DNA of 28,577 nt from Bacteriovoracaceae bacterium (GTDB taxonomy: Bacteria > Bdellovibrionota > Bacteriovoracia > Bacteriovoracales > Bacteriovoracaceae): the NCBI GenBank assembly GCA_041586955.1, contig JBFGZE010000037.1, positions 1 to 28,577 of the forward strand, written 5' to 3'. This document shows positions 2,089 through 17,915 of this stretch, piece by piece (the first letter of the stretch is position 1; each line of letters begins with the position of its first letter). The translations under genes and the position numbers were made by a program. Below the pieces are notes generated by a model. The model searched no databases. It was not told where the DNA came from and was given only the letters and a program-made list of their open reading frames with translations.

Positions 2089-2137
2089 TAAGTATTTAAA
2101 ATTATGTTTAAGTAAAATGAACCTACGAAATTTCACT

Positions 2138-2164
2138 GAGGGCCTTTAATAAGGCCCTCTTTTT
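2138..2164 (+). terminator. Rho-independent terminator
   Basis: GAGGGCCTT-TAAT-AAGGCCCTC (9-bp perfect stem) followed by TTTTT. Confidence 0.85.
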
Positions 2165-2167
2165 ATT

Positions 2168-2194
2168 TAGGCCCTGACCATTTTTCACCGATAT
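2168..2194 (+). promoter_or_regulatory. Possible sigma28 (FliA) promoter
   Basis: TAGG-N15-ACCGATAT versus consensus TAAA-N15-GCCGATAA; lies just after the terminator and 30 nt before ATG 2225. Confidence 0.4.
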
Positions 2195-2224
2195 GAGAAA
2201 GAGAAAAATAAGATTGTGTGAGAG

Positions 2225-4060
2225 ATGAAAAAGCTGATACTTAAATCCATTTTGACTGTTTTGACCTTAGTTTCAACGCTAATGGGGTCGAGTTATGCTT
2301 GTTTTAATATGCAGGCCCAAGTCGGTGGCCTTATGCAAGGGAGTATAAGCCCTCCAATGGGAGGCTATTCTCAAGGTTATAGCATGTTGAGACCGCCTTA
2401 TGCGATGAGACCTCCTTATAGGATGGGCCATCAATATGGAATTATGGGCCCTACCCAGCAGTACTTCGCTCCTCCATCGCGACCGATGAGTTATATCACC
2501 GGTTTGCCCACGATGCCCCGGCCTTTGAATAATCCTATCTATGCTTCTCCTTATTATTATCAACATAATCAAGGATTCTATGGGTATAGCTATTTCGGCC
2601 AGCAAGGTGGGAGTGGCGCTTTCCAAATGCCCAATTACTCTTATAATTATAATTGCTTCCCCCAAATGATGGGAACGGCGGCCATGTATATGAAGTCTAT
2701 GATCGATAAACCTGTTGCGCCGATTGATCATGCTCCTTTGTTTTGGCGTGAGGAAACAAGTAAACCTGATACTGGCTGTGATAAGTTTTATTATTACTGT
2801 CCAGAGGATGAAAAGGAATACGATCAAGAAAAAGATAAAGATAAAGAAGAAACCATCGATGAACGCCCTAGTCCTGTAATTCCTGATGTCCCTGAAGATA
2901 ACATTATCACTACTGAGCCATCTAATCCGTCGGAGCAAGAAGTTCTGAAGCCGGAAGTTGTAGAGATCGTCGTTGGTATTGAAAAAATTAATGAGGGCGG
3001 ATTTTTACTACCGGAGTGGGTTCCTTGTCGGCCTAACTCCTCAATTCCTAGCAAAGGAGATAATCCATCTCTGGAAGGTGCCTTTGATTTATTTTTAACC
3101 TGGTATCAGGACTGTTCTGCCCTGGATATTGTAATTGGTGATATGCCTTTTGATTTTAACAAGTTCGGGAGTAAAAAGAGAAATGGTAATAACGATGTCG
3201 TTCGACATATTGAAGATCGCCTAGGTTATATCAAGTCTCATCCGTATTTAAAGGTATTACAAGACAAAAAGGAAAAAGGCCGTTTTCCTGGTAATAGTTG
3301 CCAAGATATTCTTAAGCAACCACCAATGTTTAGTTATGGAGGGAAGCCCATTATAAAAAATGGCATAATCGACCTTTTTGCCAATAAAGCGGCGGAGCCC
3401 ATTTGCACTCATAATAGAGTTAAATGTGGTACTCAGCCGGTTAGTACTATTGACTGTAGCGGTTTTATTGTAACGGCATTACGCTCACGTGGTCTCAATT
3501 TGAGTCCTCATAATACTTCTGTTCAGCACGTTAATACAGGTAAACTAGCAAGGCTTATTAAAGACCAAAATAGTTGCATGGAGCATGTTCAATTTAAAAA
3601 GACTGGCAATCATTTCGATGTTATGAAGGCCGGTGATATTATGACTGTGTCGCAACACCATACCTTTATGTTTTCAAAAGTCGGTGATGATCCACTGGGC
3701 ATTGAGCAGGCATTAAAGAAGGGGGATTGCCGTGCGATTACCCCTAGTCATTTTAATTTTGAAGTGATTCAATCTGGTGCAGCAGGTTCTCTTGGCGTTG
3801 CCCAGCTCAAAGGGAATAGTATTCATTTAAGTTCAGGGATGCAAGCGACCCTTCTTAAATGGGCACGCCAAATGTGTGGCCAATCATTATTGAGTAAAGG
3901 TCGCGATGTCATCATTAAAACCGAAGGCCAAGGCCGTAAAAAGCAAACGATTATTATTGGGCGCCATAAAGGTTCTAAGAAAGAAGGCTGTATTGATGCC
4001 AATCCTCCCAAGTTTAAAGGGAAGGATTGTATTGGAGATTGCCGGGAGGGAGGTCAATAA
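2225..4060 (+). CDS. Secreted protein with N-terminal low-complexity region, acidic linker and C-terminal NlpC/P60-like (papain-fold) domain; putative peptidoglycan hydrolase
   Basis: Signal peptide (..SSYA); FSYGG...IDCSGF (Cys411), then MKAGDIM...QHHTFM (His478/479), the NlpC/P60 motif order. Confidence 0.65.
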   Translation: MKKLILKSILTVLTLVSTLMGSSYACFNMQAQVGGLMQGSISPPMGGYSQGYSMLRPPYAMRPPYRMGHQYGIMGPTQQYFAPPSRPMSYITGLPTMPRPLNNPIYASPYYYQHNQGFYGYSYFGQQGGSGAFQMPNYSYNYNCFPQMMGTAAMYMKSMIDKPVAPIDHAPLFWREETSKPDTGCDKFYYYCPEDEKEYDQEKDKDKEETIDERPSPVIPDVPEDNIITTEPSNPSEQEVLKPEVVEIVVGIEKINEGGFLLPEWVPCRPNSSIPSKGDNPSLEGAFDLFLTWYQDCSALDIVIGDMPFDFNKFGSKKRNGNNDVVRHIEDRLGYIKSHPYLKVLQDKKEKGRFPGNSCQDILKQPPMFSYGGKPIIKNGIIDLFANKAAEPICTHNRVKCGTQPVSTIDCSGFIVTALRSRGLNLSPHNTSVQHVNTGKLARLIKDQNSCMEHVQFKKTGNHFDVMKAGDIMTVSQHHTFMFSKVGDDPLGIEQALKKGDCRAITPSHFNFEVIQSGAAGSLGVAQLKGNSIHLSSGMQATLLKWARQMCGQSLLSKGRDVIIKTEGQGRKKQTIIIGRHKGSKKEGCIDANPPKFKGKDCIGDCREGGQ

Positions 4061-4482
4061 TGAAAATATTAACTCCTCTTTTAATATTCTTAATTTCGAT
4101 ATCTCTACAGGCAAAGTTTGACTGTGGTGTCGCGATTAAGGAATTGGCCAAAGAGGTGGTCGAGGGAGAATTACGTGGACGCAGCCACCCTGCTCCCAGT
4201 CAATGTTTAAAACAAGGCGATTTTAAGTCCTATCGCCTACGCTGGGATCCTCCAGGCGAAGTGCGAAAGATATCAACTTTAATGGTCACGAAATGGGGTC
4301 TTTCTAAGGTTATTACCGTGGATAAAGTGATAGGGCATTATCGGGCCTATTTCTGGGTTCAAACAGAAAAAGGGCGGATGACTGATACTATTGACTTTAT
4401 GGAGATGGATGATCAGCGACTGGGATGCGCCATGGCCTTATTTTATCCCAAAAGATCCTATTTATTAGAAGGTTGTCGCTAA
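4060..4482 (+). CDS. Small exported hypothetical protein (140 aa, 4 Cys), translationally coupled to the upstream gene
   Basis: Start re-assigned to ATG 4060 (TAATG overlap with the upstream stop, GGAGG just upstream), which yields a clean signal peptide MKILTPLLIFLISISLQA. Confidence 0.75.
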   Translation: MKILTPLLIFLISISLQAKFDCGVAIKELAKEVVEGELRGRSHPAPSQCLKQGDFKSYRLRWDPPGEVRKISTLMVTKWGLSKVITVDKVIGHYRAYFWVQTEKGRMTDTIDFMEMDDQRLGCAMALFYPKRSYLLEGCR

Positions 4483-4558: not shown

Positions 4559-7500
4559 ATGGGGAATTGGAAGAACAATTTTTTTGTTTTCTTCGTATTG
4601 ATTTGTTTAATCAATGGCGTCTTTGCAGCATCTTCTTTTCCACTTTTTGTTTATGAAAAAAAAGACTGGCGCCAATTTGCGGTCATTGAGCAAGATAATG
4701 ACCGGTTTCAATTACAAATATTTGAACAACAAAGGGGCGATTTTCAAGATCTCGTGACCACTTTGTACTTCCCAACAATCATTCTTTTAAAAAGCTATTT
4801 ACGCGAAAATTATCCATTGATGAGGCCTGGAACTTTAGATCCATCATTTGAAGCCCCCATAAATAACGAGAAACTTCCATTTTTTGGTTCTGAACGAAAC
4901 TCTATCCGGAGAATGAAGCGGCAGCCGATATGGAGCGTTCGCCATGAGTGGAATTCCGAGTGGGAGGCCAAATACGCTACCTGGGTCGAGAAAAGCTTTG
5001 ATGATGAGTTTTTTGTTCGTTACAAAATCTCAACTGACTGTGCCGATGTCGCTATTGGGTTGCGATGGATTTTTTCTCGTATTCACTTTTTACCAGCAGC
5101 GAATCATCTCACTGGTAGCGAAACTCTTTTTGGCCATTTTTCCTCCCGTCAAAAGTGGAGAAAACTCAGGCGTCATGATGAATGGCATAAGGATAAGTTG
5201 TTTTTAGCGGCCCTGGAGTACGTTTTTTCTAATACCTATACAAAATCTTTAATGCTCGACTCCTTACCCGTTAATATAGTCAAAGGGCATTTTAGGGCCG
5301 GCAGTTATTATATTAGACGGGGAGAAACCGATGGCCATGTAAGAGTTTTTTCTCTGATTGATTTTGAAAGCGACAAATTCCCCTTAATGACCCTTTCTTC
5401 TACGCTTCCTACTGAAATAAGAGTGATGAATAAGGAATTATTTATGAATTCTTATTGGCCAGAGGAATCAGTGTCTGGAATTATGGCCATGCGCTGGCCA
5501 ATCAAAAAAAAGGGAAGGTGGAAACTAAAAAGTAGCGATAAACATCCGCATTATTCACTTTGGCAATACGATACTCACCATAGGCGTACCCAAAATTTTA
5601 CATTAACGATTTTATGGCAATTTGGTGGTAAAATTAATATTAATAATTTTATCCAGCAAGGACTTGATGACCTTATTAGTTATATTGATGCCCGTCGTAT
5701 CATTGTCGAGAGAGGGTATCTTTTTTGCTTAGAAAACGATTGCTCACAAGGGTCCTATGCCTACGAGGATTGGTCTACTCCTAGTCGTGATAAAAAATTA
5801 TTAGAAAAATTTAGGTTAATTGAATTATATTTAGATTTAATGGCCGTGAAGAATTCTCCCTATCATTTACGGTTTGAGAAATTATTAAAGCAAACATTCG
5901 TTTCTATTGAAGGCCGGCAATATAACTTTGCTAAAATACGTTTCGCATTGATGCGAAAAGGCGCATCGTTTGATCCCAGTGTTGACATTGATAAGCGTTG
6001 GGGCGTAAGTGCCTCCTTTATGGCGCAAAAATTTAAAAAAACAACCCTGCCTTTACTTCAATCCCGAAATGAAAAAATTAATAATCAACCTTGGCCATGT
6101 GTCTATTCCTGTTCACCTCCAGAGTATAGTTGGTGGGATTATAACTCCTATCTCGAAGATAATCAGATAAAAGCGGAGTTTGATTATATAAGAGGGATGT
6201 GTCGTGAGGATAATGATTTTTTTCAATGCCAAAAGTCCGTACTTGCATTGTTAAAAAAATCCTCCTTGCGTTTAAATGGAGAGGATTGGACATTCGCCTC
6301 GGTATACAAAAAAGCGCCACTCTTTGGAGCTGACCCACGCATGGATCGCCTCAGCCGTTGGGGCGATAATTCTCGCATTATTTTACTTCCCCCAATTGGC
6401 TCATCTCTTCATGCCAATAAGGGAGGTTACATTTTTATCGATAAGAAATACCTTTTTTCAATTAAAGATCAATCGGTCTTAGAATTTTCCCCTCAAGAAT
6501 ACATTTTGTCCCCAAATGGTGAAGTCTGGATTATTAAGAGAGAGGCCGATAAATTTGTCATTAATAATGGGAAAGTCACTATATTGAGTTTACCAAACGA
6601 TGATTATAAAACTCTCGCCATAGATGATTCAATTTACCTTTTTGGTAAAACTAATTATCGTTATGATTGTAAAAACGGAAATTTAACAGACCTTGGCGCA
6701 GAGAATAGGAAATTCTCTTATTTAGGGCTCGATCATTTATTCCTTGGTCAATATGAAAATCAATACTTTCTCTTACAAGGAAACAAAGGGATCCATATTC
6801 CTTTATTTAAAGATAAAGATCCTTCTGGTTCGATGGTGATCCAGGCCAGAAATCAAAATATTATTTATGGTTATTTAAAATTATTTTATGGCCAGAAATA
6901 TCGGCCGATTCGAGTCGACCTGCGCACTCAAAATGTGCTTATTGGAAGGGACACTCAAACAGAACCAAAGTGGGTTAATGATCATTATTTTGTGTATAGT
7001 GAAAAGTTAGGTAGTAAGCAGGAACAAACCTTTTTAGTGCATCGCGATTTCCCCAACGATTTAAAGCCTATCGCGTATCAATTTATTGATCAGGTTTCTT
7101 TTTTGCGGCAAGAGGTTATATTTTCCAATGGTGAAGAGTATGGCCAACGTGAGAGGGACCTTCTCAAGTTGAACAATGGTCAATTTAAAATGATAAAAAA
7201 TAATGTTGAGAAAAGCTTTGAGAGTGGTGGACATCTTTATTTGCCCAATGAAACAGACGCCTCAATATTTAGAATTGGCCCTTTAGGAGACCGTGCAATT
7301 GGACCACGAGGCCATCTCATATCTCCTCTTCTCTCGGCATGGGAAGAAAAGGGGGATCTATGGTCTTTATATATGGGAAATAGCTTCGGTGATAACTCGA
7401 GGAATGCGGCCATCTATCATTTCGATCATAAAAATTCACGTGAATTAATTCCAATCGCCACCCCAATTCGCTATAATGCCAAAAGTATTCCTCATTTTAA

Positions 7501-7588
7501 AAACCATATTGAGAAAGGAACCTTAATTCCCTTAACCGAATTTCAATGGGGAATACTTGTCCGAGAGTATTCCATTAATATGATTTGA
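4559..7588 (+). CDS. Large secreted multidomain hypothetical protein; candidate Cys-His catalytic domain, internal duplication, beta-rich C-terminus
   Basis: 1009-aa ORF, RBS GAGGGG, signal peptide; TDCAD (Cys161) and RAGSYYI...DGHVR (His260); two ~120-aa repeats each ending DPxxDxxxRWG. Confidence 0.7.
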   Translation: MGNWKNNFFVFFVLICLINGVFAASSFPLFVYEKKDWRQFAVIEQDNDRFQLQIFEQQRGDFQDLVTTLYFPTIILLKSYLRENYPLMRPGTLDPSFEAPINNEKLPFFGSERNSIRRMKRQPIWSVRHEWNSEWEAKYATWVEKSFDDEFFVRYKISTDCADVAIGLRWIFSRIHFLPAANHLTGSETLFGHFSSRQKWRKLRRHDEWHKDKLFLAALEYVFSNTYTKSLMLDSLPVNIVKGHFRAGSYYIRRGETDGHVRVFSLIDFESDKFPLMTLSSTLPTEIRVMNKELFMNSYWPEESVSGIMAMRWPIKKKGRWKLKSSDKHPHYSLWQYDTHHRRTQNFTLTILWQFGGKININNFIQQGLDDLISYIDARRIIVERGYLFCLENDCSQGSYAYEDWSTPSRDKKLLEKFRLIELYLDLMAVKNSPYHLRFEKLLKQTFVSIEGRQYNFAKIRFALMRKGASFDPSVDIDKRWGVSASFMAQKFKKTTLPLLQSRNEKINNQPWPCVYSCSPPEYSWWDYNSYLEDNQIKAEFDYIRGMCREDNDFFQCQKSVLALLKKSSLRLNGEDWTFASVYKKAPLFGADPRMDRLSRWGDNSRIILLPPIGSSLHANKGGYIFIDKKYLFSIKDQSVLEFSPQEYILSPNGEVWIIKREADKFVINNGKVTILSLPNDDYKTLAIDDSIYLFGKTNYRYDCKNGNLTDLGAENRKFSYLGLDHLFLGQYENQYFLLQGNKGIHIPLFKDKDPSGSMVIQARNQNIIYGYLKLFYGQKYRPIRVDLRTQNVLIGRDTQTEPKWVNDHYFVYSEKLGSKQEQTFLVHRDFPNDLKPIAYQFIDQVSFLRQEVIFSNGEEYGQRERDLLKLNNGQFKMIKNNVEKSFESGGHLYLPNETDASIFRIGPLGDRAIGPRGHLISPLLSAWEEKGDLWSLYMGNSFGDNSRNAAIYHFDHKNSRELIPIATPIRYNAKSIPHFKNHIEKGTLIPLTEFQWGILVREYSINMI

Positions 7589-7632: not shown

Positions 7633-7671
7633 ACGTAATTAATGTGTTTTTATATTCTGTTGGAGGACATT

Positions 7672-9084
7672 ATGGAAATAGGAAGAGTTATGTGGATTTT
7701 AAGCTTATTAAGTCTTTTAAGTTTTGGGTATGCTGAGGAGTTAACACTAAATCAACTCAAAAATCGAGCAATACAAGATAGTACAGATGTTCAAATTGCG
7801 TATGAAGAATACTATCAAGCACAGCAACAAATTAAAGTGAGTTTAGGCCATGTTGTACCGCGGATAGATATTGAGGCATTTCGCTCCGGCGTCACTATTG
7901 GTGTCCTTGACTCTTTATTACCAACTCCAAGTGATTGGTTTGTCTACAAGGGGAGTCAAGATTTGGCCCAGGCTGAGAAATACGCTGGTCAGGCGATTTG
8001 GCTTAATATCCAATTGGGATTGGCAAAAAATTATTATGCCCTAAAGTTTCAAGAGAAAAATTTAATAGCTGTTACCTCGATTAAACAAATGTATGAGGAG
8101 ATACTCAGTAAATTACGTCCACAGATAGGAATCGGTAACGTGGAACCTATTCTTTTATATGAGATTGAAAGAAAGATTCTTAATTATAAACAACAAGAGT
8201 ACTTGATTAGAGAAACAATTACTCGTCAATACCAAGTCCTTAATGTCCTGCTTAAAAATGATCCCGAAAACGAGCTGACATTCGCCGATATGAAGGAGAA
8301 GGAAATATATAAATTTCCTGAGGATTGGAGAGAGGCCAGTGAAATAGGTCTCGATCATTCACCGGAGGTTATGCAAAGTAAATACCTTTACCGCGCTTCT
8401 CTTAAAACTCGTAAATCGAAATCGTGGGACTTTATCAACTTTCAAGGAGTAGGTTTTGATTATTTTTCCAATGTAAAAATAGCCCGTTCAGAATCTCGGG
8501 TTTTAAAATTAGAGGAAGAAAAAACGCGTAATAGAATTACCAATCAAGTTTTTTCAATATACGAGGAAATGAATTATCTTTTGGCCCGATTGGCGAATTC
8601 TGAATCATTTGTTACATCACAGCGGCATAATTTTGGTGGCATTGAAAGTCGCTTTCAAGCGCATCTCGTTCCCGCAATGGACTATGGGGAGGCCAAGGAA
8701 AAGTTAATTCTTGCTGAAATTGATCATTTGGGAATTATATTTGAAAAATTAGTCAAAGAGGAGGAATTAGCGCGTTTGCTCAATTATCGGCCATCTCTTT
8801 TTATCATCCCACAAGACATTCCTCTTCGCGAGGATATGAATATTGAAGTTTTAACTTATTCACGCCAGGAGAATGGTAAAGAGCGCGTACGCTTTTATCT
8901 ATCCGGTGTTGAATTAGACCAAGTTGACTCCTTTAAGGTGCTGGGGTTAGAGGATGAGTATATGACTAATAGGGCCCGTAATAATTTTAAATTGCGGATT
9001 TATCGCAACAATATTGGAAATAATATTCCATACGAAATTGTATTGAAAACGGGTGATATTATTCATGGGGTGGTTGAGTTATAG
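7672..9084 (+). CDS. TolC-family (outer-membrane efflux protein-like) protein 1, with a C-terminal extension
   Basis: Start re-assigned to ATG 7672 (GGAGG at 7662-66). Signal peptide then ELTLNQLKNRAIQDSTDVQIA...P, two helical OEP-like repeats (YYAL; GLDHSPEV; RFQAHLV..MD). Confidence 0.75.
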   Translation: MEIGRVMWILSLLSLLSFGYAEELTLNQLKNRAIQDSTDVQIAYEEYYQAQQQIKVSLGHVVPRIDIEAFRSGVTIGVLDSLLPTPSDWFVYKGSQDLAQAEKYAGQAIWLNIQLGLAKNYYALKFQEKNLIAVTSIKQMYEEILSKLRPQIGIGNVEPILLYEIERKILNYKQQEYLIRETITRQYQVLNVLLKNDPENELTFADMKEKEIYKFPEDWREASEIGLDHSPEVMQSKYLYRASLKTRKSKSWDFINFQGVGFDYFSNVKIARSESRVLKLEEEKTRNRITNQVFSIYEEMNYLLARLANSESFVTSQRHNFGGIESRFQAHLVPAMDYGEAKEKLILAEIDHLGIIFEKLVKEEELARLLNYRPSLFIIPQDIPLREDMNIEVLTYSRQENGKERVRFYLSGVELDQVDSFKVLGLEDEYMTNRARNNFKLRIYRNNIGNNIPYEIVLKTGDIIHGVVEL

Positions 9085-9122
9085 CGGCTTAAAGTGAAAA
9101 AACGAAAAATGGATAATTAGCA

Positions 9123-9158
9123 CGACTATAGGTCAGTTTTATTACTGGCCTATAGTTG
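9123..9158 (+). other. Intergenic stem-loop without U-tract between the two TolC genes
   Basis: ACTATAGGTCAGT-TTTATT-ACTGGCCTATAGT, 13-bp stem with one G-U, extendable by 2 bp. Confidence 0.7.
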
Positions 9159-9183
9159 AGAGCAGTTAACTGAGGGCATAATT

Positions 9184-10422
9184 ATGAAAATAATAATCTA
9201 TTTAATGACGTCTATTATTATCAATCAAGGGGTAAGTGCTGGAAGTCATCATTTTGATGAATTTGTTAATGGAATGAACCGATCATCAGCACAGGCCCTT
9301 ACATTAGAGGAGATTCAATGGGAGGTAAAGGAGGGGAATAAGGACCAACGGATCGCGGTTGAAAGGATTTATCAAGCAAAGCAGGAGATCAAAAATGCCC
9401 TCTTAGATTTTATCCCGCTGCGTACATCGGACTTTTACACATTCGATAAATTTGAATATTACGGCACCTTATTTGTCGCGAATGCGGTTTTGTCTATACC
9501 GTCAAAATGGTTTGCCTATAAACGGAATAAAAGATTGGCCAAAGTCGAATATTATGGGAGAAAAGCGATTACAGCTAATCTTCAAAAAGAAACGTCCCTT
9601 ATTTATTATGATGTCGTAAAACATCAAATTTTACTTAAATGCCTGATTAAAAATATAGAATTGAATGAGAATATTATTCGCCAAGTATCAATGCGTAATG
9701 ACCTTGGAGAGGATGATCGTGAGACTTTAAATGAGTTAAGATCGGAGCAATTTCATTTGAAAGATACTCTATTGCATGCCCGGCAGTTGGTCTCAAAGGA
9801 AATGATGGCGCTCCGGATTTTGGCCGGAAAAGATCCTGAGTATCCTCTCTTAGAATTGGCAACATCCTTAGATGAAATTAGGCCCAGCGATATTGAGGCG
9901 GACCGAGAAAAACTCTTTCAAAAGGCGCTGGATGATAGTTATGAGTATAAACAGAGTCGTTATTTGGTCAGCGCTATGGCCCATGAAAAAAAATCTGTGA
10001 AATGGTCAATCCTGGGTTTTACTGGTATTGGGTTCAATTATATGGCCCGTGTTCGCTTCGCAAAATCGAATGTCAAAGTGGCCAAGCTACGACGACAACA
10101 TTTGAAAAACCAAATTAGGCATCAAGTTTATACGGAATATGATAATTTATTGATAATGACTAATCGCTTGGCCTGGGATAAGGAGATGACAAAAATTTCC
10201 TCCAAGCAATACCAGGGTATAGTTGAGGCCTTTAATCTTGGTAGTGTCTCTTTGCGTGACCTGTATAAAGCGCAAATTAATTATCTGAAAGATGTCAAAA
10301 ATTATTTATTTTCCTATTATGATTCATTAAAAAAAATGGCCGAATTTGAACGTTTAATGGGGAAAGATTATTTCACCTTTCATGGCCGTTTAGCTATGGA
10401 CAAGAAAGGCGCAGACCACTAA
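9184..10422 (+). CDS. TolC-family protein 2 (paralogue of 7672-9084)
   Basis: ALTLEEI...N.D..IA.E.IYQAKQ; YYDV; FNLGSVSLRDLYKAQ (OEP-type G..s..dl..aq). Shares PSxWFxYK and WxxxxFxGxGFxY with protein 1. Confidence 0.75.
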   Translation: MKIIIYLMTSIIINQGVSAGSHHFDEFVNGMNRSSAQALTLEEIQWEVKEGNKDQRIAVERIYQAKQEIKNALLDFIPLRTSDFYTFDKFEYYGTLFVANAVLSIPSKWFAYKRNKRLAKVEYYGRKAITANLQKETSLIYYDVVKHQILLKCLIKNIELNENIIRQVSMRNDLGEDDRETLNELRSEQFHLKDTLLHARQLVSKEMMALRILAGKDPEYPLLELATSLDEIRPSDIEADREKLFQKALDDSYEYKQSRYLVSAMAHEKKSVKWSILGFTGIGFNYMARVRFAKSNVKVAKLRRQHLKNQIRHQVYTEYDNLLIMTNRLAWDKEMTKISSKQYQGIVEAFNLGSVSLRDLYKAQINYLKDVKNYLFSYYDSLKKMAEFERLMGKDYFTFHGRLAMDKKGADH

Positions 10423-10638
10423 CCCTAAAGGGAAGTTTATGATTACTGAGGGCCTGTAATATGGAGGAGTTGAAGGGTATAATTAAATTGTTATCAGAAA
10501 TTGGACAAGTGTTTGATATTCCGTTTTAATATGATGGGTTTGTGTCTGGGGATGCGGCCATGGATAGAAAGTTTTACAATACCACTGCCCAGAAAAGCAT
10601 AATACGTCCATAATGACACGCGGCGTATGGAGTGATTT

Positions 10639-11157
10639 ATGAATTGGAAATCCGTCTCTTTAACGGCTCCAATGGCCCTTATTGGACAGAAAATATTTAT
10701 GGCCCATCAACTGGGGCTTAAGTCCCTATCATTTGTGGGTGCTGTTAGGGACCGTCAAAAATCAGAGGCGGTCGTGCAAATTGGTGCGCATCTGGCCGAT
10801 GTATATGGTATTAAAGTGGCCATTTTTGATATGGAAAATACAATTGATAGGGATACAAAATGGGGTCCTCTGTCATTTTTTAATCTAGATGATCTTATTA
10901 TGGATCCCAACCAATTAATTATTAACGATAAAATTACCCACCGTTTAATGAATGAATTTGACCTTGTGCTTATTAACTCTAGGGTAAAATTTGGATTAAT
11001 TGAAAGTGCGCCCCCTGAAATACCTCGGGCCTGCGCCCATTTATTCCTTTGTTCTAAGAAATCTCTTAAAGGTCAGATGAATCGACTTCTCTTGGATGAG
11101 CTTAAGGCCGGGGACCATAATGTTCTTGGCGTTGTTAATATTGAAGGGCCGGAATGA
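10639..11157 (+). CDS. Stand-alone, degenerate BY-kinase (Wzc C-terminal/CapB/CpsD-like) domain; probable pseudokinase
   Basis: Topology SLSFVG-AVRDRQKS-helix-GIKVAIFDME...FDLVLINS...LK.....VLGVVN follows CapB/CpsD; overlaps the co-polymerase start (ATGA). Confidence 0.6.
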   Translation: MNWKSVSLTAPMALIGQKIFMAHQLGLKSLSFVGAVRDRQKSEAVVQIGAHLADVYGIKVAIFDMENTIDRDTKWGPLSFFNLDDLIMDPNQLIINDKITHRLMNEFDLVLINSRVKFGLIESAPPEIPRACAHLFLCSKKSLKGQMNRLLLDELKAGDHNVLGVVNIEGPE

Positions 11158-12350
11158 ACGATTCAAAGATCTATATAAAAAACACTTTTGAAATATTACG
11201 ACGCTACAAGATTGTGATATTCTTTTCTTTGGTTATCTGTACTGGATTATCGCTAGAAACGACTCGCTGGCTAAAGAAAAAGTACAAGGCCAGTTTTGTA
11301 ATTAATGTTTATAGTAAGTATTTTGCGAATCCTCTTGTTAATGAAGTGATCCGAGGGGAGTATTCTATTCCTCAAATGCGATTTACGATTGATTCGATGG
11401 TTAAAGAGGCCCTCGACGATGAGTATATCGACTCCATAGGTTACGAATATAGCTTCTACGCAAATAATATGAATAAAAAGCAATTGACCTGGGCACGTAG
11501 TTTTTTACGAGAGCGCTTTAAATTATTTTCGACAGGTGGTCAAAGTTACCAGGTGGACTTTTTCGGGCGTGATCCCATTACAGCACTTGAGATCAGCCAG
11601 AAGACCTTAAAGCACGTCAAAAACTATTTTGTCCAAACTCGGATTATGACCATTGAGAATGTTAAGAAAATTGTCATGAAAAGAATTGAGTCAATGAATG
11701 TTGGACAAAAAATTGAGAAAGATGGCCCTGCAAATCCTTTAGCAAGTATGAGTCCAGATGTTTTGCAGGGAGAGTTGAAAAAAGTTAATAATGAAATTAT
11801 TGCATTGAAAAAACAGTTTAATGGAGAACACCCCTCTGTCCTCAAATTAGAGAAGAGGAAAGTTCAATTGGAAAATTGGCTTTCTGATTATAAACCCGAA
11901 AAGAGTAACTCTAATGAGGACCTCTCATTATCTATTATGAATGTGGATGATAAGGACATTGCTCTTAACCTTTCAAGCCGGCTCTATATCAAGTTTAATG
12001 ATATCAATATGGCCTTGGCCTTAGAAAAACAAAATCTCCCTAGTTATATTGGAGTTATTAAGAGACCAAACTTACCCCTTTATCCCATTTGGCCAAAAAA
12101 ACGCATTTTCGCAAGTGTTGGTTTACTCATGGGGCTAATGATAGCATTTATTTATATTCTTTATCACGAGGTTATGTCAGAGACTCAGGTTGAGGCGATT
12201 GAGTTAATTGCCGAAGAATTGGGAACGGAATTTCTTGGAACCGTCTCTTTAAATCAAACACTCGCTCTCAATCCTCCTCGAGATCATACTATTTATGCTA
12301 GTGGGCCAAGGAAAAAGGCAGATACTTTAATTGACAATAATACTCATTAG
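11154..12350 (+). CDS. Polysaccharide co-polymerase (Wzz/GumC/Wzc N-terminal-like)
   Basis: N-terminal TM after LRRYK, Y.AS motif, periplasmic coiled coil with FNGEHPSV, Pro-rich PNLPLYPIWPKK before the second TM with GxxxG, then EELGTEFLGTV activator-like segment. Confidence 0.8.
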   Translation: MNDSKIYIKNTFEILRRYKIVIFFSLVICTGLSLETTRWLKKKYKASFVINVYSKYFANPLVNEVIRGEYSIPQMRFTIDSMVKEALDDEYIDSIGYEYSFYANNMNKKQLTWARSFLRERFKLFSTGGQSYQVDFFGRDPITALEISQKTLKHVKNYFVQTRIMTIENVKKIVMKRIESMNVGQKIEKDGPANPLASMSPDVLQGELKKVNNEIIALKKQFNGEHPSVLKLEKRKVQLENWLSDYKPEKSNSNEDLSLSIMNVDDKDIALNLSSRLYIKFNDINMALALEKQNLPSYIGVIKRPNLPLYPIWPKKRIFASVGLLMGLMIAFIYILYHEVMSETQVEAIELIAEELGTEFLGTVSLNQTLALNPPRDHTIYASGPRKKADTLIDNNTH

Positions 12351-12358
12351 GAAATGGT

Positions 12359-13789
12359 GTGCAAGATATCTTCGATCTCACATTTTCCTTGCATGAAATT
12401 GGATTTGGCATTCTTGGGGTCTATTTCCTTTTTGATCTTATTAAATACACCGAAGATCTAAAAAAATACCCAATCAACTTAAGAAAAAATATTTTTTTTC
12501 TACTATTAATAAGCGTTATTGGATTGACCGTTTTCCTTGCCCAGGAGTGGTTTGTCTTTGGACCTTTTTTACCGATCGAATTTGCCTTATTAATTACTCT
12601 TAGCTTCCTTCATCCCAAATACGGAGCTTCATTTTTACTCTATGCACTTTTATCGCGACCTTGGGAGGTTTTTGATAATCAATTGATGAGTAGTATGCCG
12701 AGAGATTTATCTTATATTGTTTTACTTTCAATTTTGATGCATAAAATGTGGCGTAAAGAGTTCTATTTGCGTTGGAACCATGCGAGTTCTTGTCTTCTTC
12801 TATATGCGGTGTGGGTCTTTCTCTCTGTTATCACCAGTGGTCATCCTACGAACGGTTTATACGAGTATGGAAATGTTTTTATTAAAGGAGTTGTCCTCTT
12901 CTTTCTATTAACTAATAGTATGAAAGTTAAAAGTGACTTATCCCCGGCGACCTTTGCCCTGGTTCTTTCTATTTTTGAAAAGGGAATTATTTCGTTTTAT
13001 AAGGCATTTATGACAGAGAACTTGGCCGCTGGGGCAAGGCTTGAAAGCATTGGCATTCTCGAAAACAGTAACGACATCGCTGCAATTTTTATTTTGGCCA
13101 TTCCTCTAAGCTTTTCTTTATTTCGCGGTATTAAATTGAAATCCATCCGTTTTTTTCTAAATAGTTTTTTTTCGATTTTTTATCTCGTATTGATCTGGAA
13201 GGCAAAAAGTCGTGGTGCCCTTATTGGGGTTGGTTGTATTGTAATGGCCTACTTTTTTTTAAAAGTCCAGAAAAAATGGATTAAAGTAGTTAGCGTTTTA
13301 CTTGTCGGAATGACGATTGTTTTAGCGAGTAACCTTATTAAAAGAGATGGATCTGACTTAGATGGATCTACCTCTAATCGAATGATTTATTGGAAAGCGG
13401 GGGTTAATATGGCCATTCGCAACCCTCTGTTCGGTGTCGGACTTGCGGGTTACCCACTTTATTTTGGAGATTATGCCATTGATGGAAACCTAGGTAGTGA
13501 AGGTAAGCTTCGGACGATTCACTCCAATTGGTTATTGCCTATGGCCGAATCTGGCCTTCCCGGATTCTTTTTCTATATTTGTTTTTGGGCCTTCGGGCAT
13601 TTGGCAATTAAAAGACAAGCACAGAGTTATCCAGAATTTTATATGGCATTCTTTGGATATGCAGGGACTATTACATTTTTATCACATACCTATTTACTTT
13701 ACGCTTATATTCTCATTGCTCTCATCCTTATGTCAGATCAATTACCTTTGCGATCTAAAAATGAATCTCACCAAAGGGAGCTGGCATGA
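12359..13789 (+). CDS. O-antigen ligase / Wzy polymerase family membrane protein
   Basis: Multi-TM; RL..IG..ENSNDIA, SRGA, R..YWKAG..M...NPLFGVG, IHSNWL...AESG.PG (Wzy_C motifs). GTG start. Confidence 0.85.
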   Translation: MQDIFDLTFSLHEIGFGILGVYFLFDLIKYTEDLKKYPINLRKNIFFLLLISVIGLTVFLAQEWFVFGPFLPIEFALLITLSFLHPKYGASFLLYALLSRPWEVFDNQLMSSMPRDLSYIVLLSILMHKMWRKEFYLRWNHASSCLLLYAVWVFLSVITSGHPTNGLYEYGNVFIKGVVLFFLLTNSMKVKSDLSPATFALVLSIFEKGIISFYKAFMTENLAAGARLESIGILENSNDIAAIFILAIPLSFSLFRGIKLKSIRFFLNSFFSIFYLVLIWKAKSRGALIGVGCIVMAYFFLKVQKKWIKVVSVLLVGMTIVLASNLIKRDGSDLDGSTSNRMIYWKAGVNMAIRNPLFGVGLAGYPLYFGDYAIDGNLGSEGKLRTIHSNWLLPMAESGLPGFFFYICFWAFGHLAIKRQAQSYPEFYMAFFGYAGTITFLSHTYLLYAYILIALILMSDQLPLRSKNESHQRELA

Positions 13790-14934
13790 CAGAAACTCTA
13801 TTGGTCTTTTCCTTATTATGCTTAACTTTTAATTATATTGGCTATCCTATCTCCCTGGCGATAATTGGTATGTTTTCCAAAATTAATAAAAATTATACAG
13901 ATATTCTTCCTCGAGTCGATTTTATGATTGCCGCCTATAACGAAGAAGAATTTATTGCGGAGAAAATTAAAAATACTTTAGAGCTCGATTATCCCAAAGA
14001 TTTAATGAATATTATAATTGTCTCTGATGGTTCACAGGATAAAACTGATCAAATTGTCAGAAGTTTTAAGGACTCTCGGGTGAAACTATTTCGGGTCGAA
14101 GGGCGACAGGGAAAAACTGAGGCGAGAAATATTGCTGTTGCTGCCTCTCAAGCTGAGATTATTGTTTTTTCTGATGCGACAGCAATTTATGAGAAGGATG
14201 CTTTAAGAAAAATAATGCGCCATTTTGGTGATGAGACAGTTGGAATGGTTAGCGGTAATTTAAAATATCAAAATCAACAACAAACTGGGATCGGATTTGC
14301 GACCACACTTTATTGGCGATATGAAAGGCTTATCAAAAAACATCAGGCGAGGCTATGGACTCTGACTGGTTCAGTTGGATGCATTAATGCTTTTCGCCGC
14401 TTGGACTATACTCCTTTACCTGCCCATATTATAGAAGATTTTACCGAACCGTTGATGTTTATTTTAAAGGGAAAAAGAGTTGTTTTTGAAGAAGAGGCCA
14501 TCGCTTACGAAAGAACGACCTCGAAACCATCTCAGGAATTGGTGATGCGCTCTAGGGTCATTAAAGGTGGTCTTCAAGGGATGTGGTTCGCCCGTCAATT
14601 ACTCAATCCATTCCTACATCCTTTGCCCTGCTACCAATTGATTGGGCATAAGATATTGCGCTGGCTTGGCCCTTTCCTGTTACTCACCCTATTCTCTTCT
14701 AATGCTGTATTATGGTGGGAAGATTATTTTTGGTTTTATCACTATCTATTTATGGCCCAATGCCTTTTTTATGGATTAGCTACTTTGGGGCTGGTTTTAG
14801 ATTTTCTGGGAAAGAGAATAGGAATTCTCAGTTTTCCCATGTATTTTTTGGTGGCCAATACCGCGGCGGCCTTGGCCTGGAGAGATGCTTTTCTCCACAG
14901 GAGATTGGCGACCTGGGAAACCAATACTTATTAA
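13786..14934 (+). CDS. Glycosyltransferase family 2 (cellulose synthase-like, membrane-bound)
   Basis: IAAYNEE, LDYP, VSDGSQD, GK..A.N, FSDA, YWRYE, ED motifs; N- and C-terminal TMs; ATGA overlap with upstream gene. Confidence 0.9.
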   Translation: MTETLLVFSLLCLTFNYIGYPISLAIIGMFSKINKNYTDILPRVDFMIAAYNEEEFIAEKIKNTLELDYPKDLMNIIIVSDGSQDKTDQIVRSFKDSRVKLFRVEGRQGKTEARNIAVAASQAEIIVFSDATAIYEKDALRKIMRHFGDETVGMVSGNLKYQNQQQTGIGFATTLYWRYERLIKKHQARLWTLTGSVGCINAFRRLDYTPLPAHIIEDFTEPLMFILKGKRVVFEEEAIAYERTTSKPSQELVMRSRVIKGGLQGMWFARQLLNPFLHPLPCYQLIGHKILRWLGPFLLLTLFSSNAVLWWEDYFWFYHYLFMAQCLFYGLATLGLVLDFLGKRIGILSFPMYFLVANTAAALAWRDAFLHRRLATWETNTY

Positions 14935-14943
14935 GAGGTCATA

Positions 14944-16134
14944 ATGAAAGTATTATGGGTATTACCCAAATGGACATTTCCTGTTAATGATGGTGCTCGG
15001 CATGCTTCATTTTCATTATTATCTCAACTAAAGGGAAATGAAATTGATTTCGATGTTTTGGCAATTGTTCCAGATAAAGAAGAGTGTGATATCGAGCAAA
15101 TGCAGGATGCTGTAGGTTCCACTGAAACTTTTTTAATTAACAGAACGTCAGCACCGACATTCAAAAAAAAATTGTCACTATGGTTAAGCTCTTTTTTTAA
15201 AAATCCTTCAATACCTCTTACTGCGAGTTATTTCTATTCATCAACTATTCATGAACCTATTTCTTGTATTTTAAGGGCCAAGCAATATGATGTTATTGTT
15301 TTAGATGGTTTTCATCTGGCATTTTCCTTTTTACCTTTTATGAAAAGTTTTTCGGGAAATATGATATTGCGATCGCATAATATTGAATCTGACCTATGGT
15401 TTAAAAAAGCGGAGAGAATGAGTTTTCCGATGAGCACGTTTTGCCGCTGGCAAGGAAACCTTTTCCAAAAATGGGAAAAAAAAATACTAGCACTCCTTCA
15501 TAAAACCTTACCTATCTCACAAACGGACCTCCAAACCTATCAGCAATGGGGAGGTGGGGTAGTTGAATTAATACCTCTAGGCCTCCCCTTTTTAACATCG
15601 CGACCTCAATTATTGCCACATGATAATCGCCTACTTTTCCTTGGGCGTTTAGACTGGGCGCCAAATAAAGACGGCCTGAAGTGGTTTTTGGATTATGTTT
15701 GGCCCAAGGCGCTCTCCATCCGCTCAGATTTGAAATTGAGAATAGTCGGGAGCGGTGATAGTGATTGGCTTCATTCTTACGCTGCTCTTCCGGGAGTGGA
15801 AATAATTGGACGAGTTGAAAGGGTCGCACCGTTTTTTGAATGGTGCTCCGCCACTATCGCTCCACTTTTTTATGGTAGTGGTACCCGTATTAAAATTGTC
15901 GAAAGTGTCGCTCATAATCGCTGTGTGATTACTACCCAATTAGGGGTACAGGGAACATCTCTATGTGGGGAAGAGTTTTTTCTCGCCCAGGGAATTGATG
16001 ATTGGGTTAACACTTTAGTTGGGCTTAACAAACAAGATGCCTTTGCCAAAACGAAGGCCGCTAAGGAAAAGCTTGAAAGAGAATTTGACCGGAATGAGAT
16101 TGGACGTCAATTAGTAGAATCACTTAAAACCTGA
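14944..16134 (+). CDS. Glycosyltransferase family 4
   Basis: MKVLWV...FP..DG, HNIES, LFLGRLDWAPN.DGL.WF, PL..GSGTRIKIVE; RBS GAGG. Confidence 0.9.
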   Translation: MKVLWVLPKWTFPVNDGARHASFSLLSQLKGNEIDFDVLAIVPDKEECDIEQMQDAVGSTETFLINRTSAPTFKKKLSLWLSSFFKNPSIPLTASYFYSSTIHEPISCILRAKQYDVIVLDGFHLAFSFLPFMKSFSGNMILRSHNIESDLWFKKAERMSFPMSTFCRWQGNLFQKWEKKILALLHKTLPISQTDLQTYQQWGGGVVELIPLGLPFLTSRPQLLPHDNRLLFLGRLDWAPNKDGLKWFLDYVWPKALSIRSDLKLRIVGSGDSDWLHSYAALPGVEIIGRVERVAPFFEWCSATIAPLFYGSGTRIKIVESVAHNRCVITTQLGVQGTSLCGEEFFLAQGIDDWVNTLVGLNKQDAFAKTKAAKEKLEREFDRNEIGRQLVESLKT

Positions 16135-17228
16135 TCATAAATATATTGGGTTTTTTTAAGCCACTGATCGATACCATATTGTTTTTGAATAAGTATAATT
16201 TTTGCCTGCGCCCCTTGTGCCAAATCCTTATAAGACTCTTTAAATGCTTTTAATATTTCTGGCCAGGAAGCTGGATCTTGAGGAGATAGCAGCAAACCAT
16301 TTGACCCGTGATCAATTAATCGTGGAATTGCTCCAACCTGGGTTGCTAAAACTGGTTTACCGGCGAGCATTGCCTCTAATAAAGTCATAGGAAGCCCTTC
16401 TCTATGACTAGGCATGATGAGCGCATGAGATTTGTCTAAGATTTCACTTGGATCTTTTAAAAAGCCATGCCATTTAAGATGATCGTTTACATTTAATTGA
16501 TGTGCTAAAGATTTAAGGGCCTGCTCCTCTGGGCCACTCCCAATGATATGAGTAATGAATTGGTTTTGATGATCAAGTGCTGCTAGTCCTTTGAGAAAAT
16601 CAGCGAGCCCTTTTTCTTTTGATAAACGTCCGATAAAGGCCAGGTGATAGGGAGGTGGGGGAAGCTCTACTGTCCTGGGTATTGTTTCAGCATGGGCCAT
16701 GTTCTCAATGACCTTTATTTTTGAAGGTTGAAATTGGTGATTTTCGACCAAGTCTTTTTTCATGGATTCACTAACTGTAATAGTGCATGCCAGCCGTTTC
16801 ATAATCACTTTAACGAGACTTTCATAAAATCGTATTTTAAAATTATGGGAGGTGTCTCCATGGTGAGTATGAACAATTGAGGAGGGGAGATTCCAATTGG
16901 CAATGAAAGCGTAAAAAAGGGCCTTATGTCCATGGGTATGGATAATAGAAGGCCTAATCTTTTTTAAGTATTGGCGTAGTTTAAAAAGGCCTGCCATATC
17001 AAATCGATTTTTACAGGGAAAAGGTTGAAAGGTGAGATTATTTTTTTTTAAGATTTCGCTGTAAAAAAGAAAAGGGGCGGTATTGCGCAATTCCTTGCCA
17101 ATGATAAGAGTCTGTGCGATTTGATCCTTTAGACCGCGAAACCCTAAGGAGGTCACCTTTTCTGCCCCACCCCAAGGTCCTGGGAAAAAAAAATGACAGA
17201 CTCGGATTTTAACTTCTTGGTCTGACAA
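16107..17228 (-). CDS. Glycosyltransferase family 4
   Basis: GGAE, IIHTHG, HTHHG, FIGRLSKEKG, PSHREGLPMTLLEAM..GKPVLAT.VG (ExxxxxxxE motif). TTG start 9 nt after the upstream peptidase stop. Confidence 0.9.
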   Translation of the reverse strand: MSDQEVKIRVCHFFFPGPWGGAEKVTSLGFRGLKDQIAQTLIIGKELRNTAPFLFYSEILKKNNLTFQPFPCKNRFDMAGLFKLRQYLKKIRPSIIHTHGHKALFYAFIANWNLPSSIVHTHHGDTSHNFKIRFYESLVKVIMKRLACTITVSESMKKDLVENHQFQPSKIKVIENMAHAETIPRTVELPPPPYHLAFIGRLSKEKGLADFLKGLAALDHQNQFITHIIGSGPEEQALKSLAHQLNVNDHLKWHGFLKDPSEILDKSHALIMPSHREGLPMTLLEAMLAGKPVLATQVGAIPRLIDHGSNGLLLSPQDPASWPEILKAFKESYKDLAQGAQAKIILIQKQYGIDQWLKKTQYIYDQVLSDSTN

Positions 17229-17237
17229 TCGTATTTC

Positions 17238-17915
17238 CTAGTTTTCCATAAGATTGGATTTTAATAATTCTTGGAACCCTTCTTTGTTTTCTTCCCATAT
17301 TTCTTTGAGACCTTTTTCTTCTGAAATGACTGGGGCCTCAAAGGTTAGAACAGGGGAATGATATTTTTCAGGACAATATTCACCTAATGAACCCGGTGTT
17401 GGATGGCCATCAATATCACCTAATATCTCATACTTATTGTACTTTGCAATGAATTCCGCTAAATGCTTGCAGTCCCCATTATAATTGAGGAAAGGTTTCC
17501 ACGAATGAAATGTAATAATATAACGAGCAGGATATTTTTGCAGTAATTTATCGAGGTAAATATTTTCTGGTTCGCAAAGAGGAAATTCTCCTGGGAAATA
17601 CTTGGCCGCCCTTGCTTCTTTGGTCCAAGATGTGGAGGCATAGTTGCGGTTGAGGTCTACTCCATGAGCATTAGTGCGAGAACCTGCTCGATAGCCATCA
17701 ATATTTAGGATGGGAACGACAATAAAACTATAGTTAATGTCCTCTTCTTCTTTGAGCCAATCAAAAAGTCGATTAAGAACATAAACGCCTTCAACTTCAT
17801 CACCATGGGTTCCTCCCAATAGATAAATATAACTCTCTGCTTTTTTCTCTGAGCGAAAGGCCACAATTTCATCGCCCTCCACGGATTTCCCTGGTTTTAA
17901 ATCCACAAAATTCAT
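17238..17915 (-). CDS. mpaA: Peptidase M14 zinc carboxypeptidase, murein peptide amidase A (MpaA)-like
   Basis: GGTHGDE (HxxE), NIDG, RTNAHGVDLNRN, EPE, TFHS, PTPGSLG, TFE; no signal peptide; RBS AGAGG. Confidence 0.75.
   Translation of the reverse strand: MNFVDLKPGKSVEGDEIVAFRSEKKAESYIYLLGGTHGDEVEGVYVLNRLFDWLKEEEDINYSFIVVPILNIDGYRAGSRTNAHGVDLNRNYASTSWTKEARAAKYFPGEFPLCEPENIYLDKLLQKYPARYIITFHSWKPFLNYNGDCKHLAEFIAKYNKYEILGDIDGHPTPGSLGEYCPEKYHSPVLTFEAPVISEEKGLKEIWEENKEGFQELLKSNLMEN

Follow-up and report, generated by a model that had tools for sequence, protein, structure and literature searches.

TolC-like genes in a probable Wzx/Wzy polysaccharide locus of a Bacteriovoracaceae bacterium whose genome also encodes a predicted Wza-like exporter

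The window analysed here is the whole of contig C37 (28,577 nt, GenBank JBFGZE010000037.1) of the draft genome GCA_041586955.1, a metagenome-assembled genome (MAG) of 3.46 Mb in 194 contigs, 88.45% complete, from a Halobacteriovorax-like predatory marine bacterium of the family Bacteriovoracaceae. It carries seven co-directional genes on the + strand, in which two TolC-like genes stand ahead of genes for polysaccharide synthesis, and the initial annotation had taken this pair to occupy the place of the outer-membrane protein for the export of polysaccharide (OPX), Wza in Escherichia coli, that would be expected in such a locus. That substitution is contradicted by a cognate Wza-like OPX encoded on contig C50 of the same genome. 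On balance we consider it probable that the polymer takes a standard Wzx/Wzy route with an exit through a polysaccharide co-polymerase (PCP) and the OPX, and that the TolC-like pair, together with an exported protein of about 425 residues, forms an accessory module of the cluster and not its main channel. As judged from comparison with related genomes, the pair is not a random neighbour, and the module appears to be inherited together with this polysaccharide cluster. Labels beginning with G (genomes), L (loci), g (genera) and C (contigs) are those of this analysis.

The open reading frame (ORF) listing together with Pfam and NCBIfam scans of the 22 non-nested ORFs of the window gave the order TolC-like, TolC-like, bacterial tyrosine kinase (BY-kinase)-like, PCP, Wzy_C, family 2 glycosyltransferase (GT2) and family 4 glycosyltransferase (GT4). 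TolC1 (starting at 7642 or 7672 and ending at 9084) and TolC2 (9184 to 10422) match the outer-membrane factor family OEP with 41.7 and 54.1 bits (cut-off 22). They are followed by the 216-nt gap that had been reported between TolC2 and the glycan genes (10423 to 10638), the position at which relatives have the gene for the ~425-aa periplasmic protein. Beyond it lie the genes for a small BY-kinase-like P-loop protein of 172 aa (10639 to 11157), recognised by matching its orthologue profile to the structure 4jlv, for a PCP-like protein of 398 aa (11154 to 12350; Wzz 19.1 and GNVR 17.5 bits, both sub-cut-off), for a multi-pass polymerase of the Wzy/O-antigen-ligase family of 476 aa (12359 to 13789; Wzy_C 68.2 bits, cut-off 31.7), for a membrane-embedded GT2 of 382 aa (13786 to 14934; Glycos_transf_2 90.8 bits, Glyco_tranf_2_3 56.6 bits) and for an stp1-like GT4 (14944 to 16134; Glyco_trans_1_4 67.9 bits, TIGR03087 128 bits against a cut-off of 316). 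A convergent stp2-like GT4 gene follows on the - strand (16107 to 17228; Glycos_transf_1 120.8 bits), and the 3' ends of the two GT4 genes overlap by 28 nt. The Pfam scan found no Poly_export/SLBB, Wzx-type, Bac_transf, HlyD, resistance-nodulation-division (RND) or ATP-binding cassette (ABC) family among the 22 ORFs, so that the initial annotation was right in describing a window with neither OPX, Wzx flippase nor priming transferase, and with no membrane-fusion protein (MFP), RND or ABC pump for the TolC-like proteins. The sequence comparison indicates that this gene arrangement is not a chance one, because it recurs in relatives whose orthologues share only 25-50% identity. A consensus scan for promoters and terminators was uninformative: promoter-like sites numbered 42, with 39.8 expected, and the stretch from 10423 to 10638 had no terminator-like site.

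The window seems to be without OPX, Wzx and priming enzyme because those genes are on C50. A tblastn search with the cluster proteins of the related genome G009 located on this contig orthologues of the OPX (41% identity), a GT4, Wzx (38%) and a polysaccharide deacetylase, at 38-43% identity overall, and Pfam matched a priming enzyme at 688 to 1425 (Bac_transf, 192 bits), Wzx (Polysacc_synt_3, 73.9 bits) and Polysacc_deac_1 on the same contig. A cognate OPX elsewhere in the genome is one of the findings that the initial annotation had named as refuting its reading. In relatives the window-type genes are contiguous with the Wzx and OPX genes that here sit on C50: the order is TolC1, TolC2, the 425-aa gene, in some a gene of ~170 aa, PCP, Wzy, GT2 and, after further genes, GT4a, then on the opposite strand GT4b, Wzx and GT4c, and then OPX. 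In the window the cluster stops at the breakpoint with the stp2-like GT4, where relatives continue with Wzx, GT4 and OPX. The break thus falls between GT4b and Wzx, with an MpaA-like peptidase gene (17238 to 17915, by Pfam/NCBIfam) directly after GT4b and an unrelated 245-aa ORF after Wzx on C50. Gene order in relatives therefore points to a relocation of the Wzx, OPX, priming-enzyme, deacetylase and third GT4 genes in this genome. In so fragmented a MAG the distribution over C37, C50 and C5 could in part be an effect of assembly or binning, although every breakpoint is internal to a contig. Most relatives also have a gene of ~270 aa between GT2 and GT4a (L029:15044-15874; likewise L030-L033 and L036-L038), which the window does not have, its GT2-GT4 gap being just 9 nt.

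The OPX encoded on C50 is a lipoprotein with matches to SLBB (33.9 bits, cut-off 27) and SLBB_2 (22.7 bits). Both the lipobox and a hydrophobic stretch of ~25 residues at the C-terminus are conserved in the 15 orthologues whose ends were inspected, and an AlphaFold model from a 13-sequence alignment places a C-terminal helix at 309-333. The best Foldseek matches of this model are full-length E. coli Wza structures (9r64_A and 2j58_A, E ~2e-13, 326-329 columns), whereas the alignment with truncated Wza24-345 covers 303-306 columns and that with the Class-3 protein WzaB of Myxococcus 163. By the definitions of OPX classes in section 6 of PMC9603273, in the part of that paper available to us, the modelled protein has a Class-1-like, i.e. 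Wza-like, architecture. The genome-wide search for Poly_export/SLBB proteins and Wzx came out in two parts: Poly_export (PF02563) had no match in the genome at E <= 0.01, the C50 OPX included, while the SLBB-containing OPX and Wzx were both found on C50. On OPX orthologues Poly_export scores 14.9-26.6 bits against a cut-off of 28, and the Wza fold match spans that part of the protein; the OPX sequence alone matched nothing significantly in the PDB. An OPX that is predicted to be self-sufficient is therefore encoded in this genome, and the premise that TolC must replace it falls.

Several neighbours of the C50 genes were noted in passing. A phosphopantetheinyl transferase gene adjoins the OPX gene on C50 (L016, 5764 to 6420), likewise in G019 and G086 (L059, L060), and in G010 a fragment of a non-ribosomal peptide synthetase (NRPS) carrying condensation, AMP-binding and PP-binding domains directly adjoins the OPX gene (L014:1-2352). 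These phosphopantetheinyl transferase and NRPS neighbours are a hint that the cluster may be linked to an acyl or peptidyl modification. A 1043-aa protein with no Pfam match is encoded on C50 (L016, 1510 to 4641), its gene flanked by those for the priming transferase and the deacetylase; this protein is unrelated to the 1009-aa protein of the window (BLASTP not significant).

The initial annotation had gone on to propose that the coiled coil of the PCP may engage an oligomeric or hetero-oligomeric TolC-like channel; in the form considered here, it would dock directly onto a trimeric or heterotrimeric TolC1/TolC2 channel, which would then be the exit for the Wzy-made polymer. The position of the pair directly upstream of, and co-directional with, the BY-kinase-like and PCP genes speaks for such docking, as do the absence of an MFP gene nearby and the conservation of the linkage in relatives. 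However, a Wza-like OPX with its own predicted C-terminal helix is present in every carrier of the module, and in relatives within the same cluster; related clusters have the OPX gene directly upstream of the PCP gene and no TolC. There is also a mismatch of symmetry, as PCP and OPX assemblies are octameric and TolC is trimeric. We thus regard docking of the PCP onto the TolC pair as highly improbable, even if TolC channels have been proposed or found necessary for polysaccharide secretion in synthase-dependent systems, as stated in the accessible portions of PMC8892547 and PMC13438883.

What, then, are the TolC-like proteins? Depending on whether it is read from the ATG of 7642 or that of 7672, TolC1 has 480 or 470 aa, with a signal peptide and a C-terminal extension of ~90 aa; TolC2 has 412 aa and a signal peptide, without the extension. 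Both genes are pair-wise orthologous across genera at 23-31% identity, TolC1 being the orthologue of the leading TolC-like gene in relatives (for G009, 31% identity and E 4e-57), and the spacing between the two genes in relatives ranges from overlapping to ~30 nt. The pair falls outside the curated TolC/NodT subfamilies: TolC1 scores 27.4 bits against a cut-off of 210 for NodT (TIGR01845), and the TIGR01844 match has 34.8 bits against 225. OEP is matched by 13/13 TolC2 orthologues, which occur in short (406-412 aa) and long (491-506 aa) forms. Searched against the PDB, the TolC2 profile gave weak matches, all to outer-membrane-factor proteins, with the NodT-family structure 6u94 at E 0.0028 and TolC at E 0.3-3, in register. 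Neither in the window nor in the scanned flanks of relatives does an MFP, ABC or RND gene adjoin the pair. HlyD_D23 and HlyD_3 had no match on C37, and their matches in the genome are confined to C11 and C28. Adjacency to an MFP gene was tried as a means of telling the OEP genes of this genome apart and was dropped: HlyD_D23/HlyD_3 neighbours occur beside the OEP genes of C11 and C28 alone, and by these two models the other OEP genes are without them too.

The conserved unit is a triad made up of TolC1, TolC2 and the ~425-aa exported protein, whose gene follows the TolC pair in every informative related locus. In the genome of the window this third gene lies alone on C5, between truD and a LysM gene, and the TolC pair has stayed beside the PCP genes. 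No remnant of it was detected in the 216-nt gap, as tblastn with the proteins of G009, G010 and G019 matched C5 only (E <= 1e-3). A structure model of the 425-aa protein (pLDDT 84.5, pTM 0.77) consists of a signal peptide, a helical-repeat domain (31-203) and two small 8-stranded beta-barrels (209-312 and 332-421). Its neighbours among known structures are generic barrels, i.e. Cap15, avidins, BF2706 and designed barrels (Z 10-13), and in Foldseek lipoproteins of the TbpB/HphA type. The sequence matched nothing significantly in the PDB, and in the Atlas scores were 0.81 or lower, with no family. As modelled, the protein is neither an MFP nor a porin, and is predicted to be soluble. This is a rare family: a search of 1.84 billion protein clusters gave 155 representatives at E <= 0.001.

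The tie of this triad to the glycan genes was followed through a family sample of 121 genomes in 69 genera. The 425-aa family occurs in 16 of the genomes, from eight genera. Eleven of these 16 carriers have TolC1, TolC2, the 425-aa gene, with or without the BY-kinase-like gene, PCP, Wzy and GT2 in one contiguous, co-directional run, and in one more (G119) the 425-aa gene, PCP and Wzy are followed by the contig end. The initial annotation had suggested a neighbourhood survey; as surveyed here, relatives too have the TolC pair linked to glycan genes, which favours a functional tie. Co-occurrence agrees with adjacency: matches to the PCP (E <= 1e-90) and to the OPX (E <= 1e-73) are found in exactly the same 16/121 genomes as the 425-aa family, and within genera with and without it the three queries split in the same way (1/4 genomes in g7, 2/3 in g20 and 2/3 in g42). 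Distant homologues of the 425-aa protein occur in five genomes of four other families in a phylum sample of 301 genomes. All five lie within 10 kb of polysaccharide genes, and three of them have OPX, PCP and Wzy genes nearby. One (G355) has directly upstream a single OEP/TolC-like gene (32 bits), between epimerase and deacetylase genes of the cluster; in hhalign this gene's product matches the TolC2 profile as a homologue, with a probability of 99.2% (E 3.8e-19).

Some further genes were observed in and around these loci. GH123-like glycoside hydrolase genes (L061:4924-6624 and L064:7760-9325) lie inside distant clusters with 425-aa homologues, in G251 adjoining the homologue, and two OmpL-like BBP2 beta-barrel porin genes were seen near the cluster at L062. 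The record JBLHVN010000003.1 (L020), a public MAG contig titled 'Sulfitobacter sp.', carries at identical coordinates the locus of the Halobacteriovorax-type genome G088, and its organism label looks wrong.

A number of observations weigh against an accessory module that serves a Wza-type exit. On the side of the OPX, the model is of medium confidence only (pLDDT 68.6) and Pfam Wza_C matched none of four orthologues. The sequence of Wza_C-type helices is, by the available part of PMC9603273, strongly variable. On the side of the module, fold searches with the 425-aa protein gave no functional label, only generic barrels, helical repeats and multi-domain rows of low TM-score at chance level. 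Three of the 16 carriers have the triad away from the glycan genes: G019 and G094 at a distance of 36-40 kb, G086 on a different contig. A scan of 28 ORFs detected no TolC-like gene in four of the five distant loci; therefore the evidence for a link to the cluster is stronger for the 425-aa protein than for the TolC pair. G018 and G004 have a diverged cluster in which OPX is followed, after a gap, by PCP and Wzy, with no 425-aa gene, and therefore the core machine does not need the module. The triad also keeps upstream companions that are not glycan genes, a ~1000-aa protein in seven genomes and a transglutaminase-elicitor-like protein at five loci. Finally, because the compared genomes are kin, the counts overstate independence.

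Much of this would follow if the TolC pair, the 425-aa protein and the upstream proteins made up an independent export or efflux module, e.g. for secreted predation enzymes, with its pump or adaptor encoded elsewhere and its adjacency to the glycan genes owed to shared ancestry. The unit of ~1000-aa gene, two TolC-like genes and 425-aa gene is intact in g20 at its distance of 36-40 kb, the gene upstream of TolC1 always encodes an exported non-glycan protein, a similar cluster exists without the module in G018 and G004, and efflux pumps or type I secretion are the usual partners of TolC-family proteins according to the accessible part of a review. Against independence stand the lack of an MFP, ABC or RND gene beside the pair, both here and in the scanned flanks of relatives, the exact co-occurrence with PCP and OPX in the 121 genomes, which includes the genera where the triad is not adjacent, and the 425-aa homologues inside polysaccharide clusters of four further families, in one case accompanied by a TolC-like gene. 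We think it somewhat unlikely that the module is independent of the cluster.

The polymerisation machinery next to the module differs in its regulatory part from a kinase-fused PCP. The 172-aa protein alone has no Pfam match; a profile of its family (12 orthologues) matched best the BY-kinase-type structure of CapA1/CapB1 (4jlv, E 4.2e-6), the next-best matches being ParA/ParF and signal recognition particle GTPases at ~0.01. An EGK[ST] P-loop is kept in four of the 12 aligned orthologues and Walker A is lost in the other eight, including the window copy with its degenerate G-A-V-R-D-R-Q-K-S (RQKSE). A C-terminal tyrosine cluster is a feature of BY-kinases; here the C-terminus (...GVVNIEGPE) is devoid of tyrosine, and orthologues have at most one tyrosine. 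The initial label 'BYK-like' is a fair one; more exactly, the features of the sequence suggest a probable pseudokinase-type partner to a PCP that lacks a kinase. Its stop codon overlaps the start of the PCP gene (11154 to 11157). The PCP itself has no kinase domain, two transmembrane segments and a periplasmic domain of ~277 aa, matches the XrtA chain-length determinant model of NCBIfam below its cut-off (E 2.4e-7) and shares 42-47% identity with its orthologues; in their alignment a conserved P-x2-P-x2-P-x2-PKK motif precedes the second transmembrane segment. Its short cytoplasmic C-terminal tail resembles that of CapA. The G009 orthologue of the Wzy_C polymerase matches DUF5935 too.

The GT2 is the best-conserved gene of the cluster, with 43-54% identity to its orthologues, and together with its flanking transmembrane segments this raises the question of a second polymer, made by a synthase-type GT2 and leaving through TolC by way of the PCP or the 425-aa protein as adaptor, a tripartite route parallel to Wzy/OPX and akin to Xcs or Bgs-TolC. 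The nearest NCBIfam models are indeed of the PgaC/IcaA, NodC and CelA types; however, all score far under their cut-offs (PgaC 79 bits against 422). The QxxRW motif of such synthases is not evident, with QELVMRSR at the corresponding place, there is no HlyD-like adaptor in the locus, and the 425-aa protein is without an MFP-like fold. TolC-dependent secretion of glucan has precedents, as far as the available text of the sources goes, yet we hold a second polymer route of this kind to be improbable.

Under the standard route that we favour, the window would be one half of a Wzx/Wzy-dependent surface-polysaccharide locus. Repeat units would be started by the Bac_transf phosphoglycosyl transferase, built by the GT2 and GT4 enzymes, flipped by Wzx and then polymerised by the Wzy_C protein, with polymerisation controlled by the kinase-less PCP and the small degenerate BY-kinase-like protein, and the polymer would leave through the Wza-like lipoprotein OPX with its own predicted C-terminal membrane helix. 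The TolC module may act alongside this PCP-OPX conduit as a device of the outer membrane and periplasm for surface retention, for processing or for the export of a second cluster-related cargo. The comparison shows what the genes are, where the 'missing' ones lie, and their synteny and co-occurrence; that the module is physically or functionally coupled to the pathway, and the role given to it here, we infer. In status the proposed module would be comparable to Gfc and Wzi, accessory proteins of the capsules of E. coli. Going further, we tentatively suggest as a possibility, one that we would not yet call probable, that TolC channels with a helical-repeat/double-beta-barrel protein are an unrecognised accessory class of Bdellovibrionota Wzx/Wzy machines, coupled to PCP and OPX and giving a second passage through the outer membrane or a station for surface anchoring or processing.

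The upstream companions of the TolC pair deserve a separate description. In the window the gene directly upstream of TolC1 (4559 to 7588, + strand) encodes an exported protein of 1009 aa with no known family; it matched nothing in Pfam, NCBIfam, PDB-profile or Atlas searches. Members of its ~1000-aa family (25-31% identity) occupy this position in seven of the 16 carriers, i.e. the genome of the window, G009, G088, G118, G019, G094 and G076, so that genus g20, with its triad 36-40 kb away from the glycan genes, is among them. In a 6-sequence alignment of the family (~25% identity), C161, within T-D-C-A-D, and H260 are invariant, which suggests a thiol enzyme core. Genera without the ~1000-aa gene have next to or near TolC1 a TGase_elicitor (PF16683) protein of ~350 aa, found at five loci (L029:5286-6341, L032:13678-14727, L036:16145-17230, L037:2838-3878 and L024:4177-5208). 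A homology between the two families by way of a common DCADV pentapeptide was considered and rejected, with BLASTP not significant and an hhalign probability of 0.5%. Large BNR/Sortilin-Vps10 proteins are frequent neighbours as well (L014, L035, L036, L037).

Further genes of the window lie outside the cluster. Upstream of the 1009-aa gene, from 1231 to 4482, three co-directional genes encode exported proteins without family assignment: one of 285 aa that is rich in Arg and Gly, one of 611 aa with a low-complexity N-terminal half rich in Pro, Met, Tyr and Gly and a sub-cut-off NlpC/P60 match (17.9 bits) at a DCSGF motif, and a third of 151 aa. From their sequences these products could be predation-related cell-wall enzymes. 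A pullulanase-type alpha-1,6-glucosidase of 1002 aa (21515 to 24523, - strand) and a 567-aa protein whose sole match, a weak one, is to cytochrome c (25081 to 26784, + strand) appear unrelated to the locus.

The passage of polysaccharides across the outer membrane is still under revision, with the Wzp porins added only in 2022, and the surface polymers of predatory bacteria are almost unstudied. If the proposal is right, the TolC module with its uncharacterised periplasmic family would be a further accessory type of Wzx/Wzy/OPX clusters. The case also calls for caution, as the 'absence' of an OPX from a 28-kb window of a fragmented and rearranged MAG was misleading. No account of TolC-family genes as conserved components of Wzx/Wzy/OPX clusters turned up in a limited search of open-access text. 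What has been described as an additional outer-membrane component of Wzx/Wzy pathways is the Wzp beta-barrel, which goes with an OPX without membrane helix (PMC9603273 and PMC12819527, in the sections available).

Of the known systems, the group 1 capsule and colanic acid of E. coli (Wza-Wzc-Wzy-Wzx-WbaP/WcaJ) are alike in the presence of Wzy_C, Wzx and Bac_transf proteins and of a PCP, here a PCP-like protein, and the model of the lipoprotein OPX is most similar to full-length Wza, C-terminal helix included. In contrast to E. coli, the PCP here has no fused kinase and is accompanied by a separate 172-aa kinase-like protein with a degenerate P-loop and no tyrosine cluster; moreover, the locus is split over two contigs and has the TolC-TolC-425aa module attached. 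Closer in lifestyle is Myxococcus xanthus with its EPS, BPS and MASC pathways, likewise those of a predator, with Wzx/Wzy and a kinase-less PCP with a pseudokinase-type partner (EcpK; accessible text of PMC12004946), and with an extra outer-membrane protein encoded beside the pathway genes (PMC9603273, PMC12819527). According to the accessible parts of the latter two papers, the OPX proteins of M. xanthus belong to Class 3, without a membrane-spanning part, and the exit is the 18-stranded PgaA-like beta-barrel Wzp, whereas here the OPX has a predicted C-terminal helix, the added proteins are of the TolC family and the 425-aa protein is predicted to be soluble and not a porin.

TolC-family proteins have been tied to polysaccharide secretion in synthase systems: HlyD-like and TolC-like proteins with the cellulose synthase of Thermosynechococcus (PMC8892547), and BgsA-BgsB-TolC in the secretion of mixed-linkage glucan by S. 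meliloti (PMC13438883). Within the available text of these two sources the tie is so far only to processive synthases with an HlyD-type adaptor, and Wzy, Wzx, PCP and OPX play no part in these systems. Here, in contrast, the set of Wzx, Wzy and OPX is complete and no HlyD-like gene is in the locus. The sphingan clusters of Sphingomonas resemble the present case in another way, as parts of type I secretion system character (AtrB/AtrD), of unclear role, sit in a Wzx/Wzy cluster and influence yield (PMC9197254, in the part consulted). There, by the same text, it is the ABC protein and the HlyD adaptor that are encoded in the cluster and TolC elsewhere, whereas here the cluster has outer-membrane factors only. 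For the regulatory part, the split PCP/BY-kinase pair CapA/CapB of Staphylococcus is the nearest counterpart, with 4jlv as the nearest solved relative of the 172-aa family; compared with it, the 172-aa protein is shorter, has no tyrosine cluster and belongs to a family in which Walker A is lost in 8/12 orthologues.

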